From: Bacteroidales bacterium
GTDB lineage: Bacteria; Bacteroidota; Bacteroidia; Bacteroidales; NBLH01
NCBI GenBank assembly: GCA_046329965.1
Contig: JAXLTR010000016.1
Span: 127,598 to 191,597 of the forward strand
Direction of reading: 5' to 3'
DNA: 64,000 nucleotides
The notes beneath the pieces were generated by a model. It did no database searches and had not been told where the DNA came from. It worked only from the letters and a program-made list of their open reading frames with translations. Shown here in pieces: positions 5,742-63,294 of this stretch (positions within the stretch are counted from its first letter, which is position 1; each line of letters starts with the position of its first letter). A program made the position numbers and the translations under genes.

Positions 5742-7001
5742 TTGATAATGAAAACAAAACTGCTCCTGTTTATTATTTTCATGTTATTGGTAAATTCCGG
5801 TTACGCACAATGGACAATACAAACTGTTCCAAATCCTAAAAAACTAAACAATACTTATGTAGCTAATCCCGACAATATCCTTTCGGTAAACGATGTAATG
5901 TCGCTTAATTCTTTAATAAAATCAGCAGATGATTCTGGTAAAATTCAAATAGCGGTTGTAATACTCAAATCAATTGGTAACGCTGTCCCCAAGGAATTTG
6001 CTACCTCATTGTTTAATTATTGGGGCGTGGGAGAAAAAAATGTTGACAATGGGCTGCTCATGCTTTTTGTTATGGATCAAAGGCGGATAGAATTTGAAAC
6101 CGGCTATGGAATGGAATCAATAATTACCGATGCAATTTCTTACCAGATTCAGCAGGAATATATGGTGCCAGAGTTTAAGGCAGGAAATTACGGATTAGGA
6201 ATGATAAAAGGTGTTTCAAGAGTGATTGAAGTTGCCGGCGGAACATCAGAAATAATTCAACCGGAAAGTACTGTAAATGAATATACTGGAAACAATACAA
6301 CAGAAACCAACTATTACGATAGTTCTCCGAAAAGGACTGATTATCATAGTTTTCTTGGATTTTATATAAGGGCAACTCTATTGATGAGCTTATTTTTTAT
6401 CATCATGTTTTGCATCACCATGTTTCAGGACGATTATTTTAAAAGGCATAAAACAATGCGGATTTTCAAGCTCTATATCTGGTTTTTACTTTTTCCGATA
6501 CCGTTTGCAGGGTTTTACTTTTGGACAAAAAAGCTTCTCGACAGTTGGAGAAACACACCACGAATAAGCCCGAAAACAGGACGGTTAATGCGGAAGTTAT
6601 CTGAAGATATTGACGATCAGTACCTTGAAAAAGGACAGGTTACTGAAGAACAAGTTAAATCAATTGATTATGATGTTTGGATTAGTGAAGAACCTGGCGA
6701 TATTCTGATTTTAGCTTATAAAAGATGGTTTTCGGCCTATAGTGCCTGTCCGATGTGTAAATTTAAAACATATTATAAAGAATATGACAGGGTAATCCGT
6801 TCGGCTACCTATTCAAGCTCAGGTGAAGGTGAACGCAGATATACCTGCAAGAACTGTAATCACAGTAAAACAACCAGGTATACTATTCCACGCAAGACGA
6901 AATCTTCGAGTAGCAGCTATCGTTCAGGTTCTTCAGGTGGAGGCAGTTCATCATTTGGTGGAGGCCGTTCAGGAGGCGGTGGTGCCGGAAGTAGCTGGTA
7001 G
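5742..7001 (+). CDS. TPM domain (DUF477) membrane protein with C-terminal Cys4 motif and Gly/Ser tail
   Basis: FATSLFNYWGVGEKNVDNGLLML...RRIEFETGYGME TPM motifs; two TM helices; CPMC...CKNC; ends SFGGGRSGGGGAGSSW. Confidence 0.88.
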   Translation: MIMKTKLLLFIIFMLLVNSGYAQWTIQTVPNPKKLNNTYVANPDNILSVNDVMSLNSLIKSADDSGKIQIAVVILKSIGNAVPKEFATSLFNYWGVGEKNVDNGLLMLFVMDQRRIEFETGYGMESIITDAISYQIQQEYMVPEFKAGNYGLGMIKGVSRVIEVAGGTSEIIQPESTVNEYTGNNTTETNYYDSSPKRTDYHSFLGFYIRATLLMSLFFIIMFCITMFQDDYFKRHKTMRIFKLYIWFLLFPIPFAGFYFWTKKLLDSWRNTPRISPKTGRLMRKLSEDIDDQYLEKGQVTEEQVKSIDYDVWISEEPGDILILAYKRWFSAYSACPMCKFKTYYKEYDRVIRSATYSSSGEGERRYTCKNCNHSKTTRYTIPRKTKSSSSSYRSGSSGGGSSSFGGGRSGGGGAGSSW

Positions 7002-7090
7002 TTTTAATATTCTGTGAAAGTAATAAAGTATATTGGCTTTTTAATTATTGTATAAAGTAGTTTACATTTGTTGCAATTTAATTTGCTAAA

Positions 7091-7345
7091 ATGGACAATA
7101 TTACTTTAACAGGTCTTTTGGCTGCTATATGCACCACTTCGGCTTATTTGCCACAGGCAATTAAAATAATCAGGACAAAGAAAACTTCGGATATTTCATT
7201 GCTAATGTACAGTGTAATGGCTTTGGGTACATTTCTTTGGCTGCTTTATGGTTTTTTTCTCCATAATTTTCCACTTATTTTAGCGAATGGTATCGGATTT
7301 TCATTAATTGCCACCATTTTTATAATGAAAATCAGGTATAAATAA
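7091..7345 (+). CDS. SemiSWEET (PQ-loop) sugar transporter
   Basis: 84 aa, 3 TM; CTTSAYLPQAIKIIRTKKTSDISLLMY, LWLLYG, PLILAN. Confidence 0.92.
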   Translation: MDNITLTGLLAAICTTSAYLPQAIKIIRTKKTSDISLLMYSVMALGTFLWLLYGFFLHNFPLILANGIGFSLIATIFIMKIRYK

Positions 7346-7504
7346 TCTGTTGGCCAAAATTGTACCCTTGCCTTTATAGTCCTTAATTTGGTTTTCGGCA
7401 AACCTGAATTATCCATCCTGAATATGAAAGTTAAAATCCGGTAATATTATAATGCTTAATGACTTATAATTTTGAACCTGAACCTTTTATATATTTATTA
7501 AACA

Positions 7505-10138
7505 CTAAAGCGACAACCAAAAATTCACTTTGACAAGAAATACATTATGTGGCTGATTTTGATATAGATTGCTTAAATCTTTTCCTAAAGCGAAATTCCC
7601 ATTTGTATCACTGGAATTTATGTCCTGCGACCAGACAAAATAGATTGTAGAACCAGGGGAATATTCCCAGCGAACAACCAGATTAGAACGATATTCACTG
7701 AAATTATAGTCTACTTTACTTATGTTGTAATCTGGGGTTCCATCATGGTTCTCATCAACCGCGTAATTCTCACTGGCTTCATTATAAACTATTTCAGAAT
7801 CGGTATAAGTATGATATCTATCTGTAAATTCACTGGCGTGTGTGTCTGTAATCATTTTGTATTTTGAATATTTCCCTGCCGAAATAAATGGCTGACCATA
7901 ATACTGAATTGTAAGTTCTGGGGTTATTGTGTAATTAATCCTTAAAGTAAAATTAAAAGTTTTCTGATCCAGATAAGCAAAAATATAGCGTGGCTCACCG
8001 TTAAACTCATTGGTTTCTACATATTGAAGTTCATTCAATGATTTGCCATACGAAGGATCAAAAGAAATTGAAAGCGCATTTATGGGTCTATAATAAACAC
8101 CAGCCCAATATTCTGTATAATTTGAACTTTTAAAATCGCCATGTCCCAGGTATCCGCCCAGGTTAAAAGCTACTTTTTTTGAAAAATCAGTATTAATATT
8201 AATATTTGTATTGATCATGCCGGGCATTAAAATGGATGGTCCGCCTCTTAACAATGTAGTTGATAAAACATGGTTTTGCCGGCTGAAATTCCCGTTTATC
8301 CTCCATTTATTTTTAAACTGGGAATTGAAATTTGTGTTTAAATTCGTTGATAATAGTTTTCCTTCAAAATTCCAATATAACCAGTAATTTGTGTTTAAAT
8401 AAAAATTCCTGAATATCCAAAAGGGATTGCGCACATAATAAGCTACCCAGGTGCCGTGATGAATAAAATCGGATGATCGCATGTAGCCTATATCATTAAA
8501 CTCCAACCCTGGTGAACGAAGTGTGAAACTGGTTTCGAACTGAATTTTCTTTTGCCCCATACGGCCAAATTTCCCGGAAATACCATAACCGCTTAAAGAA
8601 TTCAACGAAGAATCTACTGAGATATGCGTAGCATCTGGTCTCTGGAAATAGCGAGCAGACGAAATCTGGGTATTTATCAATGCGGAATTGCTACCATTTA
8701 CATTCGAAAATGCGCCTTCTCCGGCCACATACCAGGTTCTTTCTTTCCAGCTGTGCTTGAAATCAATACCTCCAGTATACGCCGATGAAAGCAGAAAGTT
8801 CATGGCAGGATTTGTAATATCGCGGTTAACCGAAGTAAACATACCACCCAGAGTAGTTTCGCCTTTGTTAAAATCTTGCTGTAGCCGCATTACAAAGTAA
8901 TTTGTGAATGGTTCAACACTTTCTTTTCGGCGTTGGCCCAAACTGTCTATTTCAGCTTTTGCATTACCTGTAAGGCTTTCAAGAATTCCAATGGATAAAC
9001 CTTTTTTGGTTTTACCGGATACTTTAAATGCCCCAAGTATTGTAGTCGATTCTGGCATTTTAACGTATTCATTTTCTGAAGTTTCGGGATAATATTGTGG
9101 ATACCTGCCAATTCTGCGCGAATAAAACAAATTGTCCTGCCCAAAATTATTGATAACAATAGGATTTGAAGGCCTGAACTGGTAAATGCTCTTGCCTTCA
9201 ATAAAAAATGGCCGCTGTTCAGAAAAATAGGTTTCAAAGGCAGTTAGGTTAACTTCGGAGGGATCGGCTTCTACCTGTCCAAAATCTGGATTTACAGTAA
9301 AATCGAGCGTTAAATCGTTAGTAATTCCAATCTTACCGTCAATACCACCTGAAAGTCTAGAAGTAAGGCCATCTGCATAAGGATTTCCATCTTCTTTTTG
9401 AAAAGTTTCGAGTTTGGCAACAATATAGGGTAAAATTTCAACCTGCCGCTTGGGTTCGATGTTTTTTATCCCTCGCAATTCGCCAAATAAATGAACAATT
9501 CCAGGTGAACCTTTGGGGATAAACTGCCAATGTGAGCGCTCTTCTTCACGGAATAAATGCCTCATAACCTGTATTCCCCAAACCTGTTCTTCTTTTTTGC
9601 CAAACCTGAGTTGGGTAAATGGAATTTTCATTTCGGCGTTCCATCCCTTATCATCAATTGATGTTTTAAGGAACCATACAGGGTTCCAGCTGTCGTCCCA
9701 GTTATTTCCATTCTGGCTTATGGCTTCGTCGCCTTTTGCACCCGATGCCATGGCCGAAAATGAAAAAGCAGTTTGTTTATCAAAATAACTGTCGATGTTG
9801 ATTTCTACCAAATCGCCCTCAAATTCATCACGGCGTGATAAAATGCGACTTATTTTGTCTGGTTCGGTATCATAAGCACGAATAAAAACATATAAATTGT
9901 CACTGTCGTACAAGATTTTAAAAGCAGTTTGCTGGGTAGGTGGTTGATTTTCAACGGGCATGGTTTGTGTAAAGTTTCCCGACCATTCAACCTGGTTCCA
10001 GCACGAATCATTCATTAATCCATCAATGTCTGGCGGAATATTGGTAAATTGAGTTTGATAAGTTCGTTGTTCAATTTGTTGCGGAAAGCATATAAAAGCA
10101 ATCAACAGAATATAAATAGTAAGAAGAAGTCTTGCCAT
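7505..10138 (-). CDS. CBM9-like sugar-binding plus DUF5916 domain outer-membrane/secreted protein
   Basis: 877 aa; signal peptide; PDIDGLMNDSCW CBM9-like start; DFTVNPDFGQVEADP and FFSEQRPFFIEG-type motifs; aromatic beta-strand C-terminus. Confidence 0.8.
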   Translation of the reverse strand: MARLLLTIYILLIAFICFPQQIEQRTYQTQFTNIPPDIDGLMNDSCWNQVEWSGNFTQTMPVENQPPTQQTAFKILYDSDNLYVFIRAYDTEPDKISRILSRRDEFEGDLVEINIDSYFDKQTAFSFSAMASGAKGDEAISQNGNNWDDSWNPVWFLKTSIDDKGWNAEMKIPFTQLRFGKKEEQVWGIQVMRHLFREEERSHWQFIPKGSPGIVHLFGELRGIKNIEPKRQVEILPYIVAKLETFQKEDGNPYADGLTSRLSGGIDGKIGITNDLTLDFTVNPDFGQVEADPSEVNLTAFETYFSEQRPFFIEGKSIYQFRPSNPIVINNFGQDNLFYSRRIGRYPQYYPETSENEYVKMPESTTILGAFKVSGKTKKGLSIGILESLTGNAKAEIDSLGQRRKESVEPFTNYFVMRLQQDFNKGETTLGGMFTSVNRDITNPAMNFLLSSAYTGGIDFKHSWKERTWYVAGEGAFSNVNGSNSALINTQISSARYFQRPDATHISVDSSLNSLSGYGISGKFGRMGQKKIQFETSFTLRSPGLEFNDIGYMRSSDFIHHGTWVAYYVRNPFWIFRNFYLNTNYWLYWNFEGKLLSTNLNTNFNSQFKNKWRINGNFSRQNHVLSTTLLRGGPSILMPGMINTNININTDFSKKVAFNLGGYLGHGDFKSSNYTEYWAGVYYRPINALSISFDPSYGKSLNELQYVETNEFNGEPRYIFAYLDQKTFNFTLRINYTITPELTIQYYGQPFISAGKYSKYKMITDTHASEFTDRYHTYTDSEIVYNEASENYAVDENHDGTPDYNISKVDYNFSEYRSNLVVRWEYSPGSTIYFVWSQDINSSDTNGNFALGKDLSNLYQNQPHNVFLVKVNFWLSL

Positions 10139-49778: not shown

Positions 49779-50126
49779 TTACATCAAAAGCAATTCTGTA
49801 GTACCTTTTTCTTGCAATTGTCTTACTATATTTGTGATAGCAGTTTCTTTGATAAATCCTTTTAATGATAAATCTTCATCCAAATCTTCCCAATGAAGAC
49901 CTACTCCTCCACCAACAAGTTTCCAGTTATCAAGTTCCTTTTGACTTGCATTATTAAATAATTGTATTCCAGACACTTTTGTTTTTATTATTTTTCCATT
50001 TGTCAATATCAAAACCATCAAATCCAGTTCTTTATCAGAAATAACAGATTTTATTCTCAAACCTTTCTCAAAAATCAAAATATCCAAAGGATCTTTTGAT
50101 CTGATATTTTCAATTTTACTTTTCAT
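49779..50126 (-). CDS. DUF2442 family protein (putative antitoxin partner)
   Basis: ASQKELDNWKLVGGGVGLHWEDLDEDLSLKG; overlaps upstream DUF4160 gene. Confidence 0.85.
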   Translation of the reverse strand: MKSKIENIRSKDPLDILIFEKGLRIKSVISDKELDLMVLILTNGKIIKTKVSGIQLFNNASQKELDNWKLVGGGVGLHWEDLDEDLSLKGFIKETAITNIVRQLQEKGTTELLLM

Positions 50127-50352
50127 GGTACTCTTTCCATTTTAATTTAAATAACTCCAAATTTTGATTCACAATTTCTCTGATTTCTCTTATTTCTTTA
50201 GTTGTAAAACCATAGAAATAAGCATCTTGCACAGGATTAAGCCAAATTTTAGCATTTGCGTCAGCCTTTTCAACGTGGATATGCATAGGTTCTCCATCTT
50301 CTTTGCTCCAAAAGAAGAACCTGAAACCTTTTATTCTTAAAATTGTTGGCAT
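50116..50352 (-). CDS. DUF4160 family protein (putative toxin)
   Basis: MPTILRIKGFRFFFWSKEDGEPMHIHV...AKIWL...W..YH. Confidence 0.88.
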   Translation of the reverse strand: MPTILRIKGFRFFFWSKEDGEPMHIHVEKADANAKIWLNPVQDAYFYGFTTKEIREIREIVNQNLELFKLKWKEYHEK

Positions 50353-50696
50353 ATCATTGCAAAATTAATGTTTTTGGCTAAATTTTAAGTCTATTGCATT
50401 AAATTAATAAAATCATAAAATTTGGAAATAAAATAACCTGGAATAAGAGACAGGTATATTAATCAGGAATTCTTCATGCAGAATATATTTTTAAACCCAC
50501 GAATATTAGCTGAATTGTCAACATTTCTTTTAATGCAAAACAACAAAATTCTTCAATTTCAACTTAAAAGCCCATACTCCAAATATGAACCTCTTTGAAT
50601 AATTGAAACAGGTTGCAAATTAATATTTTAGAATAAGCAGATAATTAGCTGGAACCATGTTTTTTACGAAAAAGCCTGATCAATCGGGTACTTTTG

Positions 50697-51128
50697 TTAC
50701 TTATCCTCGTACTTTATAGACCAATCCACTTTATTGAGATATTCAATATCTATAAGGTACTTTTTTGTAAAAATACTTTTAGAAATAACCATCTTTAATC
50801 CATATTTATCAACAGAGTCCTTAGCTACTATAAATAATCTCATCTTACCATCTTGACAATCCTTAATATACTCTTCCCAATTGATTGGGTTATCAATAAA
50901 ATATGCTAATGTGTCTTGTTTTACTTTATCAACAGCATCAATAGCTTTCTCACTATAATCTTGATAAGGATCAGAAAACTCATCTTTTTCAGAAATAAAA
51001 AAATAAATTATATCATTTGATTTATTGTAAATCTTTAGTTTACGATTATCAGGTGCTCTATCTAAGCAACCACAAAATATTGAAACTAAAAGAAAAATTA
51101 AACAACAACTTTTCATTTTATAAATCAT
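50697..51128 (-). CDS. Lipoprotein, putative immunity protein for upstream RHS C-terminal domain
   Basis: Lipobox IFCGC (likely start at 51116); 4-bp overlap with RHS stop codon. Confidence 0.65.
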   Translation of the reverse strand: MIYKMKSCCLIFLLVSIFCGCLDRAPDNRKLKIYNKSNDIIYFFISEKDEFSDPYQDYSEKAIDAVDKVKQDTLAYFIDNPINWEEYIKDCQDGKMRLFIVAKDSVDKYGLKMVISKSIFTKKYLIDIEYLNKVDWSIKYEDK

Positions 51129-52153
51129 TTGTGAAAATATAGTTTGCTCTTAAGTTCGTCACTAATATAGCTTGAGTTTACAGGATAATTTTTAAAGTCC
51201 CAGAATGATGGATAATTAAAGTAATAATACGACATTGTAATTTCTTGAACTTTGGTCCAAGTTCTATTATACAAAAAATAGTTACTTGCTTTATTTATAT
51301 CAGATCCAAAATTTATCAAACTTGAAGGTACTACATTTAAATTATACCATAAACTACCACCATATTTGTTCTGAAGAAAATGACCAAATTCATGCATTAA
51401 ATGTTTACCAGCATTTGAATTCAGACCACGATTTTGATAAGTTAAAAGAATAGATTTCTTAGTATTGATAGCTCCAGCAAAATAGGAACTAGCAGTTGTG
51501 CTTTCAGAAATATATCTCACATCTGATTCATAGAATTTATCCTTTTGATTCGAAGGATCACTCCCAAGCACTTGAGGTGGATTACTTAAAATCTTATGCT
51601 GGAGATTATTACAGTTAAAAGTACCAAAAGCAAAAACTTTTTGCGATGCTATCGTAACTGGACTAATGATATAAGATTGAAAATCTTCATTCCAGGTATA
51701 GGTGGGAGTTCCTTTATTGTATTGGTTGGTTACATTTATATAAGTGTATCCAATAAAGTCTCCATCACCAAGATTTTCAAATTCAATTTTTCCATCTTGC
51801 ATATTATTAGCTATATTGAACATTCCCACCCAAAAATCGCGATAATCATTATTACCATATTTCTCCTGTACCCATCCCGGCAAAGCCCCTCCTCCTCCAA
51901 CATATCCTTCTCCATGTACATAAGGCATATAATCCGGGCAAAATGCCTGGCTTATAGAGGTATAGGCAGTAAAAGCTTTACCTAAATTCCAATATTCATC
52001 CAATGCTGCCATCTTGTACCAACTCGGGTCCGTATACTTAAGCGGGTTGTTAAGGCAATAGCTGTAGCGGTTAAAGTTTTGGGCAAAGGTGGGTTGCTGG
52101 TTTTTCAAAGAACGCAGCTCAAAGATAGGAAACTTAATTCTTTTTGCATACAA
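51125..52153 (-). pseudogene. Orphan RHS fragment: end of RHS core plus C-terminal toxin domain
   Basis: QNFNRYSYCLNNPLKYTDPS (52022-52081) is the RHS-associated core signature but no YD repeats precede it; DPSW instead of DPSG; HEFGH motif in C-terminal domain. Confidence 0.8.
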
Positions 52154-54431: not shown

Positions 54432-55670
54432 TCAATAAAACTTAATACATACAGGTGCAGGTACCGAAACGGATTTTTCTGTACTTTCCAGCCAACCATT
54501 TTCAGGGTCTATCTTAAATACCACAATATTGTTTGAATTCTGGTTGGCAACCAGCATAAATCTTCCACCCGGGGAAATCGCAAAATTTCTGGGCGTTTTT
54601 CCGCCGGTGCCCTGGAGACCCATAAATTTCAACTCACCCGATTGCTGGTTTATCTGGTACATGGCAATATTATTGATTTTTGCCCTGTTGCTGGCATATA
54701 GAAACTTACCAGAAGGACTGATATGTATATCGGCACTTGAAATGGTATCTGCTTTTCCCTGACCCAGCGTGGAAATTACCTGAAAACGGTTCCAGAATCC
54801 GATTTTCGAATCGGTACTGAAAGCTTCAATGGTGCCATTTAATTCGTTTAAAACATACACCCAGGGCATAAAGGGATGAAATTCGAAATGCCTTGGCCCA
54901 GCCCCTGATTGAGTGGGAATGTGAATTTTCGCCGGCTCAAGTTTTTCCTTGAGCGTGTCCAGAACATAAGCCCAAACCATATCGGTACCCAAATCTGTTG
55001 AAAAAACACCGGACGATAATTTAGCCTGCTGGATCATGTGGGCGTGCGGTACAACTTCAGGCCCGTCTGTCATCTTTCTGACATGTTGGTGAACATACTT
55101 TGCCGTGGTTAAAGAACCATCTGTATTTATGCCAAATAAAGCCACAGTGCCACTTCCGTAATTGGCATCCATAATATATTTACCCGAATTGTCAACAGAT
55201 AGATGGCAGGGCCAGGCGCCTTCGGATGGTACACTATTTATAAATGAAAGGGATTTACCATTGTCGCCAATTTTAAAAGCAGTCAGATAACCACCTCCGG
55301 TACTGTCATCCAGTTCATTTACACAATATAAATACTTTTTTGTAGCATGTATGGCAAGGTACGAAGGGTTTTCGGTTTGAGGTGAAGTGGAATTGTACTT
55401 CAAATCGCCTGTTTTATTGTTAAAACTATAAATATAAATCCCTTTTGAACCATTTGGTTTTCCAGCGTTATCAAGGGTGTAGGTTCCAATATAAACAAGC
55501 GATGTATCCGGGATGTTTTCATCATGGCCTGTATTATCAGATGGTTTACAACTAAGGTGAAAAATCAGGATGGCCAAAAAGATACCGGTTAATTTTAAAA
55601 TCTTTTTCATATCAGCAAAATAACAGGTGAATAATAAGAAATTGCGGACTTTTAATAATCCAGCTAACAA
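54432..55670 (-). CDS. Lactonase, 6-phosphogluconolactonase (Pgl/YbhE) family, lipoprotein
   Basis: YIGTYT, NPSYLA, PHAH, GAGPRHFEF, GKTPRNFAISP, LVANQNS; likely start 55610 with lipobox HLSC. Confidence 0.9.
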   Translation of the reverse strand: MLAGLLKVRNFLLFTCYFADMKKILKLTGIFLAILIFHLSCKPSDNTGHDENIPDTSLVYIGTYTLDNAGKPNGSKGIYIYSFNNKTGDLKYNSTSPQTENPSYLAIHATKKYLYCVNELDDSTGGGYLTAFKIGDNGKSLSFINSVPSEGAWPCHLSVDNSGKYIMDANYGSGTVALFGINTDGSLTTAKYVHQHVRKMTDGPEVVPHAHMIQQAKLSSGVFSTDLGTDMVWAYVLDTLKEKLEPAKIHIPTQSGAGPRHFEFHPFMPWVYVLNELNGTIEAFSTDSKIGFWNRFQVISTLGQGKADTISSADIHISPSGKFLYASNRAKINNIAMYQINQQSGELKFMGLQGTGGKTPRNFAISPGGRFMLVANQNSNNIVVFKIDPENGWLESTEKSVSVPAPVCIKFY

Positions 55671-55983
55671 ATATAACCATGATTTTCGATTTGAAGCCAG
55701 GAATTGTATTATAAGCTCTAAAACAAAATGATTTGTATATAAAACCGGATACTTATAATTCTCGGGAAAAAAGGATAATTCAAATACCGGGTTTAAAACT
55801 ACCTGGCATAAAATTATTGTACATTGTTACCTTTTATATCGCTATACATTGCAGACACTGGTATTTTTTTAACTTTTAAAGAATTTCATTTCATCGTCAA
55901 TTTCTCAACTTAATTTTTAAAAACAGATTCATTTATCTAAATTTGGCTAAAAATCTTCCATTTAACTTGAATAATATCAACTT

Positions 55984-56793
55984 ATGAGAATACTTATTCA
56001 CGAAAACTCAGATCGCCTTGACCTTTGGACGGCTCACTACATAGCGGCTAAAATTAAGTCTGCCAATCCAACCCCGGATAAGCCTTTTGTGCTTGGTTTA
56101 CCTACCGGGTCTTCGCCTGTAGGTATTTATAAAAACCTTGTAAAATTATGCCAAAGCGGTAAAATATCTTTTAAAAATGTGGTAACTTTTAATATGGATG
56201 AGTACGTTGGAATACCTGAAGATCATCCTCAAAGTTATCATTATTTTATGAACTACCATTTATTCAGTCATATCGATATTCCCACCGAAAATATTAACAT
56301 TCTTGATGGAAATGCAGTGGATCTTGACCTTGAATGTAAAAACTATGAAAAAAAGATAAAATCGTACGGAGGAATTGACCTCTTTGTGGGTGGGATTGGA
56401 ACAGATGGACATATTGCCTTTAATGAACCCGGCTCTTCACTTACCTCACGCACAAGAATAAAAACGCTGACCCAGGAAACTTTGGTGGCCAACAGCCGCT
56501 TTTTTGGCGGAGATATAGCAAAAGTACCAAAAACAGCATTAACTGTTGGGGTTGGAACTGTAATGGATGCAAAAGAAGTCCTTATCATTATCAGCGGCAT
56601 TTCTAAAGCGCATGCTGTTCGAAAAGGTATTGAAGAAGGTGTGAACCACATGTGGACCATTTCTATGCTACAACTCCATCAACATGGGGTTATCTGTTGC
56701 GACGATGAATCAACGATGGAACTTAAAGTTGGCACGGTTAAGTACTTTAAAGATATTGAAAAACAATCGCTTGCAAATATTCCTGAATTATAA
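55984..56793 (+). CDS. nagB: Glucosamine-6-phosphate deaminase
   Basis: [36 protein letters not shown]. Confidence 0.97.
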
Positions 56794-56809
56794 CTACTTC
56801 TAAAAAACT

Positions 56810-58810
56810 ATGGTAACCAGGGCTATTCATAAATCAGAAATAGAAAGGCTTGAAAACCAGGGCTGTACATGCGACGACTGGACAATGCTTATGGTAAAGG
56901 AGGGCTTTAACCCTTCAGCTGTGCGAAACAGCCACTTTTCAGGAAATGTCTCGCTTGGTTTGTTTCATAATTTAATTGAAGTGGAGCAGGACATTTACCG
57001 GCCCACAGGCGTTTATAATTCATTTATACAAAATTCAGGTATTGATGATAATTGCCTGGTGTCGAATGTGAATATTATGTGCAATTACCAGATTGCCAGC
57101 AATGTAGTTTTAGAAAACATTGGAAACCTGATTGTGCATGGCGAAGCTTATTTCGGAAACGGGGTTAAAATTGCCGTAATCAATGAAGCAGGTGGCAGGG
57201 AGTTGACCATGTACGAAGATTTAACTGCCCAAATTGCCTATTTAATGGTTTTGTACCGTCATGACAAGGCATTTACCGAAAGTATTCAAACCCTGGTGGA
57301 CAATTACGTAGATTCAAAAAAAAGTACATTTGGTAAAATTGATAAAAATGTATTTATCACCAACACAAAATCAATCAAGAACGTTAATATTGGCGAATCG
57401 GCAAAGATTGAAGGTGCCAATTTCCTGGAAAACGGTACTGTTTGCAGTAGTGAATTTTCGCCCGCATACATAGGATTTGGGGTAACTATCAAAGATTTTA
57501 TTGTTCATCATGGTTCAAAGATTGACGGGAACTCTGTCATCAACAATTGTTTCGTCGGACAGGGTGTGCAGCTGGGAAAATCATTTACAGCGGACCATTC
57601 TGCTTTTTTTGCGAATTGCGAAGGATTTCAAAGCGAAGTGTGTGCTGTTTTTGCAGGACCGTATACCATTACCCATCACAAACCCACCTTGCTCATTGCC
57701 GGGCTGTACTCTTTTTTCAACGCGGGCAGCGGAACCAACCAAAGCAACCACATGTATAAACTTGGCCCTGTGCACCAGGGCATTCTTGAGCGGGGGGTTA
57801 AAACCGGTTCTTTTTCATATATCATGTGGCCATCGCGCATTGGCGCCTATTCGGTGGTGATTGGAAAGCATTTAAGCAATTTTGATTCTTCCGATTTTCC
57901 ATTTTCATACATTAACGAAGCTGATGGAAAGACCAAGCTGATTCCGGGTTTTAACCTGTTTACTGTAGGTACCCGTCGCGATGTACTTAAATGGCAGCGC
58001 CGGGATAAAAGATACACCAATGACCGGTTGGATTTGATTCATTTTGAATTGTTAAACCCTCACATTGTCGGCAAAATACTGAATGCAATAAAAATACTTA
58101 AACGCCTTTCGGATAAAGCACCTTACGAACAAGAATCATTAACTTACAAGGGTTTGATAATACTAACTGTAATGTTAAAGAACGCCCTGAAATATTACGA
58201 TTTGGCGGTAAAAAGTTACATCGGTAATGAAATTGTCCACAAACTTGCTGATACAGGAAACCTCAAGTCGATGAAAACGATTTGGAGCCGCCTTGATACC
58301 CGAGATGAAGAAATTTCAGAAAAATGGGTGGATCTGGCAGGGATGTATATTCCAATAAATAAGATTACCTTACTTATAAATGCCATTAAATCATCTGAAA
58401 TAAATACCCTTGATTCCCTGGCAGAACAACTGAGGACTGAATATTTAAATTACCGGAAGTACAGCTGGGCCTGGTGTGCCAATTTAATTAAGGAATACTT
58501 TAAAATTAATATTAACCAAATTGAACCCAATCAGCTTATCGATATTTTAAATACCTGGAAAGAAAGCAGTTTACAGCTGAATAGCCTGACCCTGAAAGAT
58601 GCCGAGAAAGAATTTAATAAAAACAGCAGGATAGGATACGGTATTGATGCACAGGAAGAAAGCGGGGAAACCAGTTTAATGGATTTCGAAAATGTAAGGG
58701 GAAAAATGACAGATAATTCGTTTGTAAAATCAATACTCGATGAAAACAGCGAAATAAGCAATAAGTACAACCAGCTTGTCGAAGTTATCAATGGATTTAA
58801 ACAAGTCTAA
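56810..58810 (+). CDS. DUF4954 family protein
   Basis: 666 aa; FAGPYTITHHKPTLLIAG, FFNAGSGTNQSNHMYKLGPVHQG; hexapeptide-like stretches. Confidence 0.85.
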   Translation: MVTRAIHKSEIERLENQGCTCDDWTMLMVKEGFNPSAVRNSHFSGNVSLGLFHNLIEVEQDIYRPTGVYNSFIQNSGIDDNCLVSNVNIMCNYQIASNVVLENIGNLIVHGEAYFGNGVKIAVINEAGGRELTMYEDLTAQIAYLMVLYRHDKAFTESIQTLVDNYVDSKKSTFGKIDKNVFITNTKSIKNVNIGESAKIEGANFLENGTVCSSEFSPAYIGFGVTIKDFIVHHGSKIDGNSVINNCFVGQGVQLGKSFTADHSAFFANCEGFQSEVCAVFAGPYTITHHKPTLLIAGLYSFFNAGSGTNQSNHMYKLGPVHQGILERGVKTGSFSYIMWPSRIGAYSVVIGKHLSNFDSSDFPFSYINEADGKTKLIPGFNLFTVGTRRDVLKWQRRDKRYTNDRLDLIHFELLNPHIVGKILNAIKILKRLSDKAPYEQESLTYKGLIILTVMLKNALKYYDLAVKSYIGNEIVHKLADTGNLKSMKTIWSRLDTRDEEISEKWVDLAGMYIPINKITLLINAIKSSEINTLDSLAEQLRTEYLNYRKYSWAWCANLIKEYFKININQIEPNQLIDILNTWKESSLQLNSLTLKDAEKEFNKNSRIGYGIDAQEESGETSLMDFENVRGKMTDNSFVKSILDENSEISNKYNQLVEVINGFKQV

Positions 58811-58942
58811 ATGTGGCAATGGTTTTTCCTTTTCATAATTCGCAGTGTTTTTAAAACTTATTAAAATGTCCAGGTATTGAAATCAAATCGATTTGAATAT
58901 ACTAAACTGAACTAATTTCTAATCTAAATAAATCGCAACACA

Positions 58943-59773
58943 ATGAAAAAAACTTATCAAATCTGCCTGTTGGCCATTCTGGGATATATTTTTATATCTG
59001 GATGCAAATCAAAACAAGAAGAATGGATTTCTCTTTTTAATGGAAAGGATCTGACCGGTTGGACGCCAAAAATTTCGGGCTATGCTTTGAATGAAAATTT
59101 CAACAACACATTTACTGTTGACAGTGGAATTCTAAAGGTGGATTATTCCAAATATCAAAAATTCAATGGCGAATTTGGCCATATTTTCTACAAAACACCT
59201 TATTCGCATTACAAAATAAGGCTTGAATACCGATTTGTTGGTAAACAAACTGAAGGCGGCGCAGATTGGGCCAACCGTAACAGTGGTATAATGATACATT
59301 GCCAGGCACCCGAAACTATGGGAAAAGGACAAAGTTTCCCGGTTTCTATCGAAGTGCAATTATTGGGCGGATTAGGAGAAGGCGAAAGAACAACCGGAAA
59401 TGTGTGCACTCCGGGTACCCTCATTGATTATGAAGGAAAACCTTATCTGGAACATTGCCTCAGTTCAAAATCAAAAACCTACAATGGCGACAACTGGGTT
59501 AAATCAGAAGTGGTAGTTCTGGGCGATTCAATTATTCATCACATCATTGAAGGAGATACTGTGCTTACTTATACAAAAACCAGGATTGGCGGCGGTTACA
59601 TGCCAAAATTATCAGGAAATAAAGAAACTGATTTGGCTGATTCGCTTGAATATGTAAAAAATGAAGGCAAACCCTTATCGTCGGGCTACATTTCTCTGCA
59701 GGCTGAAAGTGGCCCCGTTGAATTCAGAAAAATTGAACTCCTTGATTTGGGAAACGAAGCGGAAAAGCCTTAA
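58943..59773 (+). CDS. DUF1080 (3-keto-disaccharide hydrolase-like) lipoprotein
   Basis: Lipobox ISGC; WISLFNGKDLTGW, NSGIMIH, GYISLQAE, VEFRKI. Confidence 0.9.
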   Translation: MKKTYQICLLAILGYIFISGCKSKQEEWISLFNGKDLTGWTPKISGYALNENFNNTFTVDSGILKVDYSKYQKFNGEFGHIFYKTPYSHYKIRLEYRFVGKQTEGGADWANRNSGIMIHCQAPETMGKGQSFPVSIEVQLLGGLGEGERTTGNVCTPGTLIDYEGKPYLEHCLSSKSKTYNGDNWVKSEVVVLGDSIIHHIIEGDTVLTYTKTRIGGGYMPKLSGNKETDLADSLEYVKNEGKPLSSGYISLQAESGPVEFRKIELLDLGNEAEKP

Positions 59774-59895
59774 TTTTTCTCTCCATGACAATATTCATAA
59801 ATTTATAAGTTTGATAAATTTGGACTCTTTCGTTGAATTTTTATCTTTGTCTGCTATTAATTTAAGCTTGAATTCTAACCTTTTAATTCCCGATT

Positions 59896-61254
59896 ATGTC
59901 TGATAATATTTCTGAAACTCAGGTACCTCAAAATAAAAGCAGTTACCTGGTTTCCATTACCATTATTGGTATTTTGTTTTTTGTTTTTGGATTTGTTACC
60001 TGGCTGAATGGTGCCTTAATGCCATTTTTGCAAACTGCCTGCGAGATAACTCCGTTTGAGGCCAGCCTGGTTACACTTGCATTTTATATTGCCTATTTTT
60101 TCATGGCTTTGCCTTCTTCTTTTGTTTTGAAAAGGACTGGTTATAAAAACGGGCTCTTTATTGGTCTTGTAGTAATGGCGCTAGGCGCATTATTATTTAT
60201 TCCCGCTGCTTATTCACGTACTTTCGGACTGTTTTTAACAGGATTGTTTGTTCTGGGTACCGGACTTGCTTTGTTGCAAACTGCGGTAAACCCTTTTCTT
60301 ACAGTAATTGGCCCGCGCGAAAGTGCTGCTGCCCGTATTTCAATTATGGGTATTTGCAACAAACTGGCTGGTTTTATTAGTCCTTTGGTACTTTCAGCCC
60401 TGGTAATGCATGGCATGGAAAGGTTTGCCCAAGATAAACTGGCTGTTCTTCAGATTGCCGATAAAGAAGTATTGTTAAACGAACTTGCAGCCAGGCTGGT
60501 TTGGCCCTACGCAATTATGGCTGTTGTGCTGGTTTTGTTTGGCATTGCGATAAAGTTTTCTGCCTTGCCCGATAAAGTGGAAGTGGATGAAGATGAGAAT
60601 GAATCCCTGCTTGATTTTATTAAACAAATCCCGCATGCATTAAAAATTCCACACCTGGCACTGGGTATTCTGACTATTTTCTTTTATGTTGGTGTTGAAG
60701 TTATGGCGGGCGACAGCCTTACCCAATTCGGGAAAAATCTGAACCTGGCCTATGCACCGAAGCTTACTTCATATACTATGGCCTTTATGATGCTGGGCTA
60801 TATTTTAGGCATATTGCTTATACCAAAGTATCTCAGCCAGAGCAAAGCGCTTATTGGTTCAGCCACATTGGGAATTTTATTTGCAATTGGTGCCAGCACT
60901 TCTTCAATTACCGACAATACCATGTTTGGCTCGGTTTTCGGATGGTTAAATACTGCGTTTGGGTTTGAAATTCCAATTATCCCGAACAGTGTATTTTTTG
61001 TTACCATGCTGGGACTGGCAAATGCATTAATGTGGCCTGCCATCTGGCCCCTGGTTTTGCACGATATCGGCAGTTTTACCAAAATTGCATCGGCACTTTT
61101 AATAATGGGTATTGCCGGTGGTGCCATTATTCCACCTATTTATGCCAAATTGGGGCAAAGCATTGGATTCCAGACGGCCCTGTGGATCATGGTTCCCCTT
61201 TATTTATATATCCTGTTTTTTGCCGTTTCTGGGCATAAAATCCGGAAAAAATAA
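59896..61254 (+). CDS. MFS sugar transporter, GluP/FucP (NagP-like) family
   Basis: LFFVFGFVTWLN, LQTAVNPFLTVIGP, FFYVGVEV, LLIMGIAGGAI. Confidence 0.93.
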   Translation: MSDNISETQVPQNKSSYLVSITIIGILFFVFGFVTWLNGALMPFLQTACEITPFEASLVTLAFYIAYFFMALPSSFVLKRTGYKNGLFIGLVVMALGALLFIPAAYSRTFGLFLTGLFVLGTGLALLQTAVNPFLTVIGPRESAAARISIMGICNKLAGFISPLVLSALVMHGMERFAQDKLAVLQIADKEVLLNELAARLVWPYAIMAVVLVLFGIAIKFSALPDKVEVDEDENESLLDFIKQIPHALKIPHLALGILTIFFYVGVEVMAGDSLTQFGKNLNLAYAPKLTSYTMAFMMLGYILGILLIPKYLSQSKALIGSATLGILFAIGASTSSITDNTMFGSVFGWLNTAFGFEIPIIPNSVFFVTMLGLANALMWPAIWPLVLHDIGSFTKIASALLIMGIAGGAIIPPIYAKLGQSIGFQTALWIMVPLYLYILFFAVSGHKIRKK

Positions 61255-61272
61255 TTTAACCTGATTTGTTTT

Positions 61273-61310
61273 TTAAAACCCTGCCTTTCTATGAATGTGC
61301 AGGGTTTTAA
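61273..61310. terminator. Intergenic hairpin between MFS and kinase genes (terminator or processing stem)
   Basis: ttaaaaccctgc...gcagggttttaa 12-bp inverted repeat. Confidence 0.55.
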
Positions 61311-61334
61311 TTCACCTGCCACTTAATACTTACT

Positions 61335-62408
61335 TTGATGGATATAAAAATAATTAAAATTGCCGGCCAGTTTGTTACAGATGGAAAAATTGAATCTGCA
61401 GTATCATACGGAGGAGGACACATTAATGATACTTTTAGGGTTACTGCTTCTTCAGGTTCAAATTACATTTTACAAAAAATAAATAAAAACGTTTTTAAAA
61501 CACCCCTAAACGTGGTGAATAATATTGAAAAACTGCTTCAACATTTTAACCATATTGGCAAAAATGCGCTTCAAACTTTTCCTGCTTTTGATGGAAAAAA
61601 GTATTACCTTGATGAGCAGGGCGACTATTGGCGGCTGTACAATTTTGTTTCAGATGCAAAATCTTACGAAGTAATTGAAAATGAAACCCAGGCTTTTGAA
61701 GCAGGTAAGGCGTTTGGATCCTTTTTACACGATACCCTTGCCTTAAATCCTTCGGAATTTAAAGAAACTATTCCCAACTTTCATCACCTGGGCAAGCGGT
61801 ACGAGAAATTCCGGTCTGTTATTGAACAAAATCCTGCCAAAAGGCTCGATTCTGTTAAAACAGAGGTAGATATTGCCCTTGCACATTTTCATATCGCCGA
61901 ATCAGTTGAAAAATCTATCGCATCCGGTGAATTACCGGTACGGGTTACCCATAACGATACAAAACTCAACAATGCCTTGTTCGACATAAATACAGGGAAA
62001 GGAATTTGCGTTATTGATTTAGATACCGTGATGCCCGGCCTTTTAATGTACGATTATGGCGATATGGTGCGCACTTTCACCAGTCCTTTGGCTGAGGACG
62101 ACACTCATTTTGAAAAGGTTAAAATGAGAATAGAAATTTTCAAGCAGCTTACGCACGGCTACATGTCAGAATTATCAAATGCCATAAAAAAAGCAGAAAT
62201 TGAAAACCTTGTTTTAGGCGCAAAATATATGACTCTAATCATGGCGGTCAGGTTTTTAACCGACTACATTGAAGGCGACGTATATTATAAAATTAAACAT
62301 CCAAACCATAATATTGACAGGGCACGCAACCAGTTTGCCCTTTTAAAAAGTATTGAAAACCACGAAGATGAACTTCAAAAATTCATCTACGATAATTATT
62401 TAAAATAA
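61335..62408 (+). CDS. APH-fold phosphotransferase, N-acetylhexosamine 1-kinase (NahK)-like
   Basis: YGGGHINDTF, YILQKIN, RVTHNDTKLNN, VIDLDTVMPG, YDYGD, RFLTDYIEGDVYYK. Confidence 0.85.
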   Translation: MMDIKIIKIAGQFVTDGKIESAVSYGGGHINDTFRVTASSGSNYILQKINKNVFKTPLNVVNNIEKLLQHFNHIGKNALQTFPAFDGKKYYLDEQGDYWRLYNFVSDAKSYEVIENETQAFEAGKAFGSFLHDTLALNPSEFKETIPNFHHLGKRYEKFRSVIEQNPAKRLDSVKTEVDIALAHFHIAESVEKSIASGELPVRVTHNDTKLNNALFDINTGKGICVIDLDTVMPGLLMYDYGDMVRTFTSPLAEDDTHFEKVKMRIEIFKQLTHGYMSELSNAIKKAEIENLVLGAKYMTLIMAVRFLTDYIEGDVYYKIKHPNHNIDRARNQFALLKSIENHEDELQKFIYDNYLK

Positions 62409-62487: not shown

Positions 62488-63294
62488 ATGCTTAACAAAA
62501 TAAATCCTTATGTTATGAAAAGAAGAAAATTTATTACTACCGCAGCCCTTGGAGCTGCAGGACTTTCGACCGGATTTAAGGTAAAAGCCAGCCAAAATCA
62601 AAACACCGCTAATCAATTAATTGAATTCAGGGAATACCAGATGAAATTTGGTACTGACCATTCAATACTCGAAACCTATTTGAAAAATGCATTGATTCCG
62701 GCCCTCAATAAATATGGCATTGAAAAAGCAGGTGTTTTTCGCGAATACAGTAAAACTGAACCACCTAAAATATTCATGGTCACGCCTTTTCCTTCTTACG
62801 ATGAATACCCGGTAATTTTAAAAAAAGCTTATTCAGATAAAAATTTTTTAGCGGCGGCCGCAGCATACAATAGCACTCCACCTGCAAAAATTCCGTTTGA
62901 GCGCGTAAACACCTCTCTTTTAAATGCTTTTGACAGGCTTCCAAAAATTCAGATTCCTCAGCCCGGGGACAAACTTTTTGAATTAAGAATTTACGAAGGA
63001 CATAATGAAGATGCAGTTGCTAGAAAAGTAGGAATGTTTAATAAGGAAGAAATAGACCTGTTTTACAAAACAGGCTTTAAACCTGTCTATTTTGGGCAAA
63101 TGATAGCCGGTTTTCACACCCCTTGCCTGAATTACATGGTTTCATTTAAGGATATGGCTGAACGCGAGGCCATTTGGGCTAAATTTGTTGAAAGCCAGGA
63201 ATGGAAAACGATGAAAGACAAACCGGAATATGCCAATTCTGTTTCGAGTATCATACGAATATTTTTAGAACCCATGGAATATTCACAAATATAG
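62488..63294 (+). CDS. NIPSNAP family protein with twin-arginine signal peptide
   Basis: Likely start 62515: MKRRKFITTAA; two NIPSNAP-like domains (IEFREY; LFELRIYEGHNE). Confidence 0.85.
   Translation: MLNKINPYVMKRRKFITTAALGAAGLSTGFKVKASQNQNTANQLIEFREYQMKFGTDHSILETYLKNALIPALNKYGIEKAGVFREYSKTEPPKIFMVTPFPSYDEYPVILKKAYSDKNFLAAAAAYNSTPPAKIPFERVNTSLLNAFDRLPKIQIPQPGDKLFELRIYEGHNEDAVARKVGMFNKEEIDLFYKTGFKPVYFGQMIAGFHTPCLNYMVSFKDMAEREAIWAKFVESQEWKTMKDKPEYANSVSSIIRIFLEPMEYSQI

Follow-up and report, generated by a model that had tools for sequence, protein, structure and literature searches.

The window analysed here, a 64,000-nucleotide stretch of Bacteroidales contig JAXLTR010000016.1, contains a cluster of nagB, a DUF4954 gene, a DUF1080 gene, a NagP/GluP-like transporter of the major facilitator superfamily (MFS) and a NahK-like kinase. 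We find that the cluster is made of two modules: a nagB-DUF4954 pair, and a likely salvage module for N-acetylglucosamine (GlcNAc) formed by NagP and NahK. The DUF4954 protein is very probably an amino-sugar-phosphate enzyme, and we consider it likely that it moves an acetyl group between a thioester and a glucosamine phosphate. More tentatively, and with somewhat less than even confidence, we assign it in this host as a biosynthetic hexosamine-phosphate N-acetyltransferase acting on glucosamine-6-phosphate (GlcN-6-P). The product of that pathway, UDP-GlcNAc, is required for peptidoglycan and lipopolysaccharide.

A predicted GlmU-type beta-helix with a conserved set of residues

The 666-residue protein matches two Pfam families over their full model lengths, PF16314 (DUF4954; 594.5 bits, cut-off 26.2, E 1e-178) and PF20683 (DUF6819; 154.4 bits, cut-off 23.5, E 3e-45), which span residues 4-433 and 488-658. 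It is the only DUF4954 copy in the host genome (6.6 Mb, 98% complete). Pfam and family-profile scans found no nucleoside triphosphate (NTP)-transferase, mutase or amidohydrolase domain in it, and weak GlgC and mannose-1-phosphate guanylyltransferase matches fall only on the beta-helix tails of those proteins. When the genome was scanned with TIGR01173 and TIGR03991, the protein did not appear even among the weak matches, and so does not qualify as a bifunctional GlmU; nor was it retrieved when a hidden Markov model of the acetyltransferase part of TIGR03991 was searched on the genome.

Structure prediction and Foldseek agree with the initial annotation in pointing to a GlmU-type left-handed beta-helix. 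An initial AlphaFold model built from an alignment of low diversity showed no fold for residues 272-355, and a diverse alignment was used in its place. The resulting AlphaFold2 model (predicted local distance difference test score, pLDDT, 96.9; predicted template modelling score 0.94) has a long left-handed beta-helix and a helical insertion, and is helical in its C-terminal half. The top 22 Foldseek matches are all GlmU. A wide VIA-align search placed QdtC first (Z 17.9, root-mean-square deviation (rmsd) 3.0, 223 aligned), GlmU next (Z 17.1 and 17.0), and then LpxD and LpxA, near Z 15; residues 175-373 superpose on residues 246-441 of Streptococcus pneumoniae GlmU (1hm0; Z 17.0, rmsd 2.2, 189 aligned). 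A PDB sequence search with the single protein gave no matches, and a profile search of the PDB gave only eIF2B (best) and GlmU beta-helix repeats.

The HHK...NQSNHMYK...HQG segment singled out in the initial annotation, at residues 289-324, is indeed the most conserved part of the family. E276, H290 and N304 are invariant across 107 classified members, N313 is kept outside one long subfamily, and in the alignments S334 is invariant and P341 near-invariant. The 14/14/9 spacing of E276/H290/N304/N313 is identical to that of E349/H363/N377/N386 in Escherichia coli GlmU, and the spacing of S334/P341 corresponds to S405/P412. With hhalign, the match to Bacteroidota GlmU (TIGR03991) has a probability of 93.5 and places the His and the N-x-G-x-x-T-N-x-S-N motif in register; against E. 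coli GlmU as a single sequence the register slipped among repeats, so the residue match is based on the spacing, on the profile alignment to TIGR03991 and on the ranges aligned in the structural comparison. H363 is the catalytic base of E. coli GlmU. K351 and Y366 of GlmU have a role in 1-phosphate binding. By sequence register their positions are C278 and T293 in DUF4954, so these 1-phosphate/sugar-binding residues are not kept. This hints that the phosphate may be placed differently, and the conserved basic residues K291, K317, R328 and K331 could substitute. N377 and Y366 of GlmU have been located in its glucosamine-1-phosphate (GlcN-1-P) site (PMC3146400).

A prediction with three copies of residues 100-432 passed the trimer mark with a score of 0.76, the best control having 0.00, although left-handed beta-helix trimers have already been solved, so that the score possibly reflects likeness only. 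Of the solved pairs, 20 of 30 attain this mark, as does 1 of 23 single chains, and contact agreement in the runs was at least 84%, with pLDDT at least 80. In the predicted trimer, H290 contacts E276 of the neighbouring subunit.

A long DUF4954 subfamily (about 740 residues; L009-L013, L147-L152, L160) keeps E276, H290 and N304, with the NQSNHMYK motif replaced, and adjoins glmS, nagB or SIS-fold NagB-II-like genes.

Neighbouring genes link DUF4954 to glucosamine-6-phosphate and acetyl thioesters

The partner gene is well defined. NagB passes the equivalog cut-off of TIGR00502 (412 bits, cut-off 236.9) and is identical to E. coli NagB at 151 of 266 positions. The identities include the catalytic residues D72, D141, H143 and E148, and the allosteric-site residues S151, R158, K160, T161 and Y254.

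The comparison covered 93 DUF4954 loci: a phylum sample contributed 13, and the other 80 are the best matches in species genomes. The 80 are biased towards the query and come from Bacteroidota, Spirochaetes, Ignavibacteria, KSB1, Calditrichota, Marinimicrobia, Planctomycetota, Omnitrophota and Chloroflexi. DUF4954 directly adjoins nagB, on either side and in many phyla, in 40 of the 93 loci, and glmS in 6. An ADP-forming acetate-CoA (coenzyme A) ligase homolog lies nearby in 25 of the 80, a distinct acyl carrier protein (ACP) subfamily in 26 of the 93, and in L093 pta-ackA stands in place of the ligase. Neither NahK and NagP nor a GlmM-type mutase occurs near DUF4954 in any of the 80. Another set of 37 loci, drawn from one genome per family and less biased, has one of three distinct GlcN-6-P enzymes nearby in 13 cases: NagB, GlmS or a SIS-fold NagB-II-like protein. 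These counts tie DUF4954 to GlcN-6-P and acetyl thioesters, not to GlcNAc-1-phosphate (GlcNAc-1-P) salvage. In other words, of the co-occurrence with nagB and NahK-like genes anticipated in the initial annotation, the nagB part stands and the NahK part does not.

In a FastTree phylogeny the query falls inside a clade (support 0.988) associated with ACP, acetate-CoA ligase and nagB, apart from Bacteroides-like copies; in its own subclade the locus carries neither ACP nor ligase. The dedicated ACP subfamily is absent from the host genome, where the best match is of the housekeeping type (E 4e-19, versus 3e-37 in genome G186), and the sole acetate-CoA ligase homolog is 30% identical and unlinked to the locus. 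The query is thus a DUF4954 copy that has shed the ACP and ligase partners of its clade. A weak hint comes from a single position, R453: the Arg is found in 96% of ACP-linked copies, and the query has Thr there.

This ancestry raises the possibility that the reaction is catabolic. DUF4954 would shift the acetyl group of GlcNAc-6-phosphate (GlcNAc-6-P) to ACP or CoA, NagB would pull GlcN-6-P, and acetate-CoA ligase or Pta/AckA would yield ATP, so that NagA would be replaced. The clade's dedicated ACP, its ADP-forming ligase and the pta-ackA of L093 fit such a scheme, as do the ROK regulators and the long NagB-like protein that are often neighbours, and the lack of nagA in the host. We nevertheless regard it as unlikely. 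The host lacks the dedicated ACP, and its one ligase is divergent and encoded elsewhere; genome G276 retains ligase-nagB without DUF4954; and glmS adjacency favours synthesis. Transfer of acetyl from an amide to a thioester is, moreover, energetically uphill.

The lack of nagA is also less telling than it seems. The initial annotation saw none in the window and we find none in the whole genome, yet across 121 genomes of the host's Bacteroidota order, one per family, nagA occurs in only 7, with or without DUF4954, so its absence is uninformative. In L039, nagA adjoins DUF4954. A further candidate is a NagB-like protein of about 775 residues with a weak PIG-L-like C-terminal region, a possible NagA substitute and a rival deacetylase. 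It is encoded in the host (G000:C19:307847-310174, L118) and in L028, L029, L032, L033, L039, L040, L063 and L080; it exceeds the known 650-residue type and is widespread in the genus, often beside the ACP-ligase-nagB-DUF4954 operon. Together, these observations mean that replacement of NagA by DUF4954 is not compelled. Missing nagA was accordingly rejected as evidence for a DUF4954 role, 114 of the 121 genomes lacking it regardless.

In G276, locus L178 (C88:4000-22000) combines SusC/SusD-like genes, a long NagB, NagP, acetate-CoA ligase, nagB and a probable glycoside hydrolase, without ACP or DUF4954.

DUF4954 and GlmU are distributed in a largely complementary way

In the same 121 genomes, counting as GlmU a full-length TIGR03991 match, DUF4954 occurs in 26 of the 29 genomes without GlmU versus 11 of the 92 with it. 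Three genomes have neither; one of them (G243:C1:3332824-3333447) carries a 369-residue open reading frame (ORF) with a match to canonical GlmU (E 2e-59), in the C-terminal half of that protein. Bacteroides thetaiotaomicron has DUF4954 and scores over neither GlmU cut-off. Strict replacement of glmU by DUF4954 was considered and rejected, as both are present in 11 genomes and in G277, a relative of the host within its genus.

In profile searches of the host genome, neither a canonical nor a Bacteroidota-type glmU scored over the cut-off. TIGR03991 GlmU is present in 9 of 11 genus relatives, sited between rpmE and lon in the four genomes checked. In the host, rpmE and lon are 266 bp apart in mid-contig (G000:C2:262309-262576) and tblastn detected no glmU remnant, so the loss is real. 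DUF4954 is itself accessory in the genus (2 of 12 genomes). The host has a GlmM-like mutase candidate (C20:372059) and a stand-alone 214-residue GlmU-C-like protein (C9:22153-22797, L117; TIGR03992 E 9e-41) that was not found in the 11 relatives. The eukaryote-type UDP-GlcNAc pyrophosphorylase PF01704 gave no match in 5 genomes, though no positive control matched either.

Complementarity of this kind could also arise if the acceptor were GlcN-1-P, with DUF4954 acting after GlmM and, as a separate protein, directly taking the place of the GlmU C-terminal domain. GlmU itself is the closest fold and residue match, E. coli glmU also adjoins glmS, and the genome has its mutase candidate. Low probability is assigned to this alternative all the same: no GlmM-type mutase lies beside DUF4954 in the 80 loci, the K351/Y366 positions hold C278/T293, and the C9 protein fits the GlcN-1-P role better.

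Another possibility is that DUF4954 performs no hexosamine-phosphate acetyltransfer. It might sense GlcN-6-P or acetyl thioester and regulate NagB or GlmS, or it might acylate a protein or UDP-sugar in the manner of LpxA/LpxD. The large additional helical regions are compatible with this, as are eIF2B beta-helices being the best PDB profile matches, the retention of E/H/N beside glmS in the long subfamily where the NQSNH motif is lost, and ACP partners typical of LpxA/LpxD, which score near Z 15. The complete catalytic set is, however, invariant across phyla, and complementarity with GlmU is unexpected for a regulator, which makes this explanation improbable.

A separate, probable NagP and NahK salvage module

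The MFS protein scores over the TIGR01272 (GluP subfamily) cut-off, and NF046060 (NagP) remains its best family (E 4e-132), with 441 bits below a cut-off of 625. The kinase aligns with the solved Bifidobacterium NahK over residues 7-353 (E about 1e-73) and carries aminoglycoside phosphotransferase (APH)-type kinase motifs; judged by its sequence, it would phosphorylate GlcNAc/GalNAc (N-acetylgalactosamine) at C1, as NahK does.

Among 29 NahK loci from different families, a nucleotidyltransferase of the PDB 3pnn family is adjacent in 8 and NagP in 5, and neither nagB nor DUF4954 lies within 1.5 kb in any. In G277, nagB-DUF4954 is 37 kb from a NagP-nucleotidyltransferase-NahK operon. The host encodes a stand-alone 303-residue member of the 3pnn family (C7:77515-78426), 48% identical to its G277 counterpart, which most likely supplies nucleotidyl transfer for NahK salvage in trans. 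The observation that the cluster has no recognisable gene for the linking steps therefore holds within the cluster, and for the genome it probably fails at the nucleotidyl transfer. Among Bacteroidetes, a monofunctional uridylyltransferase for GlcNAc-1-P has been described (PMC4358021).

The initial annotation proposed DUF4954 as the missing step between NahK salvage and NagB. In favour of DUF4954 as a nucleotidyltransferase, mutase or hydrolytic deacetylase joining NahK's GlcNAc-1-P to NagB, the five-gene order recurs, only in the closest homolog locus (L112; DUF4954 63% identical), and some databases do label members 'NDP-sugar pyrophosphorylase family protein'. All three kinds of domain are absent, though, NahK and NagP are never found near DUF4954 in the 80 loci, NahK has its own nucleotidyltransferase partner, and the G277 modules are far apart. 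Such a link is highly improbable. What survives of the proposal is the acetyl step, as a transfer and not a hydrolysis.

Even in L112 the order is interrupted by a class D beta-lactamase (6779-7585; NF012161 over cut-off) between DUF1080 and the MFS gene. DUF1080 adjoins DUF4954 only there and in 1 of the 80 other loci. Elsewhere in the host (G000:C7:133014-135205, L119), an AmgK/RapZ-like kinase is paired with a MurU-like nucleotidyltransferase, likely a separate N-acetylmuramic acid recycling route.

A proposed route to UDP-GlcNAc

From gene identities, neighbourhoods, distribution, predicted fold and conserved residues, we infer a substrate, a donor and a direction for biosynthetic acetylation by DUF4954. 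The protein would be a homotrimeric left-handed beta-helix acyltransferase, with fold and residues taken from models and alignments. Glu276 of the adjacent subunit would orient His290, which would deprotonate the amine of glucosamine phosphate; the amine would then attack an acetyl thioester. The acceptor would most likely be GlcN-6-P, from GlmS or from NagB running in reverse on fructose-6-phosphate and ammonia. Since the host lacks the dedicated ACP and acetate-CoA ligase found in sister loci, acetyl-CoA is its probable donor. A mutase would convert the resulting GlcNAc-6-P to GlcNAc-1-P and hence UDP-GlcNAc, covering for the deleted Bacteroidota glmU. In the other module, NagP would import GlcNAc, NahK would make GlcNAc-1-P, and the C7 nucleotidyltransferase, as its gene neighbourhood suggests, would make UDP-GlcNAc. 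The modules would meet at GlcNAc-1-P, and DUF4954 would handle no intermediate of the salvage route.

Several observations weigh against this assignment. The DUF4954 of G277, from the genus of the query and 56% identical to it, coexists with a full glmU, and the same holds for further members of the clade to which the query belongs. The query also derives from the ACP/acetate-CoA-ligase clade, and the gene context of that clade appears catabolic. The C9 protein could, from its sequence, be a second candidate acetyltransferase (on GlcN-1-P), in which case the de novo route could be complete without DUF4954. Left-handed beta-helices score alike irrespective of substrate, and the trimer result may mirror likeness to known trimers of this fold. 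Finally, the odds ratio of 64 given by Fisher's test of DUF4954 against TIGR03991 is overstated, since kin are not independent.

Still more tentative is a general form of the proposal, which we put forward as a possibility. DUF4954 would be an undescribed bacterial GlcN-6-P N-acetyltransferase that gives GlmU-less Bacteroidales and other phyla a eukaryote-like, 6-phosphate-first route to UDP-GlcNAc, and its ACP-linked sister clade would couple the reaction to acetate and ATP via a protein thioester.

Organization of the locus

The five genes are co-oriented as first described, with 16 nt between nagB and DUF4954 (Table 1); the remaining gaps are 132, 122 and 80 nt. Given these wide gaps, the promoter-like motifs before nagB and the MFS gene and the hairpin between the MFS gene and NahK, a single transcript should not be assumed. 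Sigma-70 promoter and terminator scans of the locus gave chance-level results only, and an Rfam search gave no match, hence no glmS ribozyme. A lactonase-family gene also lies upstream of nagB-DUF4954 in G277, in the same arrangement.

Table 1. Features of the nagB-DUF4954 locus, in window coordinates
Feature	Position	Strand	Basis or remark
Divergent lactonase-family (6-phosphogluconolactonase-like) gene	54432-55670	-	5' of nagB
TAnnTTTG Bacteroidetes -7 promoter-like motif, 46 nt 5' of nagB	55938-55945	+	Consensus match only
nagB, E. coli-type glucosamine-6-phosphate deaminase	55984-56793	+	TIGR00502
DUF4954-DUF6819 protein, 666 residues; candidate hexosamine-phosphate N-acetyltransferase	56810-58810	+	Left-handed beta-helix with helical C-terminal domain
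Putative active-site segment E276-H290-N304-N313-S334-P341	57635-57832	+	In register with E. coli GlmU E349-H363-N377-N386-S405-P412
Near-invariant helix R390-D391-x-x-K394-W395-x-x-R398-D399-x-R401, C-terminal of beta-helix	57977-58012	+	GlmU counterpart not found
DUF6819 helical domain, residues 488-658	58271-58783	+	Pfam match and model
DUF1080 / 3-keto-disaccharide hydrolase family protein, lipoprotein-like N-terminus	58943-59773	+	Pfam
Two adjoining TAnnTTTG motifs 5' of MFS gene, possible second promoter	59806-59822	+	Consensus match only; AT-rich DNA
NagP/GluP-like MFS sugar transporter, likely GlcNAc uptake	59896-61254	+	Family profiles
Hairpin between MFS gene and NahK, candidate terminator or mRNA stabiliser	61273-61310	+	-18.2 kcal/mol (80-nt gap)
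NahK-like N-acetylhexosamine 1-kinase	61335-62408	+	Homology to solved NahK

Two other features of the window were observed. Downstream of NahK and in the same direction, positions 62488-63294 encode a NIPSNAP protein of two-domain size with a twin-arginine-like signal. At 49779-52153, a 342-residue ORF whose start resembles an RHS-repeat C-terminal fragment (NRYSYCLNNPLKYTDP) is followed by a small lipoprotein and a 115-residue DUF2442-like gene; judged by eye, the arrangement resembles an orphan bacterial polymorphic toxin-immunity module.

Significance

Many Bacteroidota are without a recognisable GlmU acetyltransferase, and DUF4954 may fill this gap in the pathway. According to Renzi et al. 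(PMC4358021), 30 of 45 genera have only a monofunctional uridylyltransferase, from which they inferred a dependence of most on external amino sugars. If our proposal is true, the inference of GlcNAc auxotrophy in GlmU-less bacteria would be overturned, metabolic models of gut and sediment anaerobes would be corrected, and a possible clade-specific antibacterial target would emerge. In the literature searched we found no functional study of DUF4954; the family appears in two lists only, and is annotated in Treponema pallidum (PMC6953169). Searches under the locus tags BT2257 and TP0851 returned nothing relevant. The present locus adds a clean glmU deletion, a family-level contingency table, a separate NahK module with its own nucleotidyltransferase and a DUF4954 copy without ACP and ligase partners.

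Comparison with known systems

In fold and chemistry DUF4954 belongs to a known type; the family and its architecture are undescribed, as probably is the acceptor. The nearest relative in kind is the GlmU C-terminal domain (EC 2.3.1.157; E. coli 2oi6, S. pneumoniae 1hm0), with which DUF4954 shares the left-handed beta-helix, the Glu/His/Asn/Asn/Ser/Pro spacing, linkage to glmS and, by prediction, possibly the trimer. Unlike GlmU, DUF4954 has no uridylyltransferase domain, has about 170 additional N-terminal residues and a 300-residue helical C-terminus, carries its own NQSNHMYK loop and RDxxKWxxRD helix, has lost the K351/Y366 equivalents, and is linked to nagB, ACP and acetate-CoA ligase. The Bacteroidota (TIGR03991) and archaeal (TIGR03992, ST0452) GlmU proteins have a His...N-x-G-x-x-T-N-x-S-N pattern that aligns with DUF4954, which apparently fills the same genomic slot; it does not score with the TIGR03991 profile, is twice as long and has a largely complementary distribution.

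QdtC/FdtC/WlbB and the ACP-dependent LpxA/LpxD share the fold class (QdtC being the best match, Z 17.9) and, as in DUF4954, the QdtC/LpxA type has a helical domain after the beta-helix; an ACP partner recurs in DUF4954 sister loci. DUF4954 differs from them in having no sugar-nucleotide or lipid A gene context and in its GlmU-like His/Asn spacing. The salvage module resembles that of the Bifidobacterium lnp system in its kinase (E about 1e-73), with the nucleotidyltransferase partner found in relatives, outside this cluster. GlmUCc of Capnocytophaga, a monofunctional uridylyltransferase (PMC4358021), could not be equated with the 3pnn family.

The reaction we propose also has a parallel outside bacteria. 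In eukaryotes, GlcN-6-P is N-acetylated by GNA1 (EC 2.3.1.4), which pairs with a reversible NagB, as in Giardia. GNA1 has the GNAT fold and we claim no homology, but the proposed reaction and its logic are alike: acetylation would pull the formation of GlcN-6-P.

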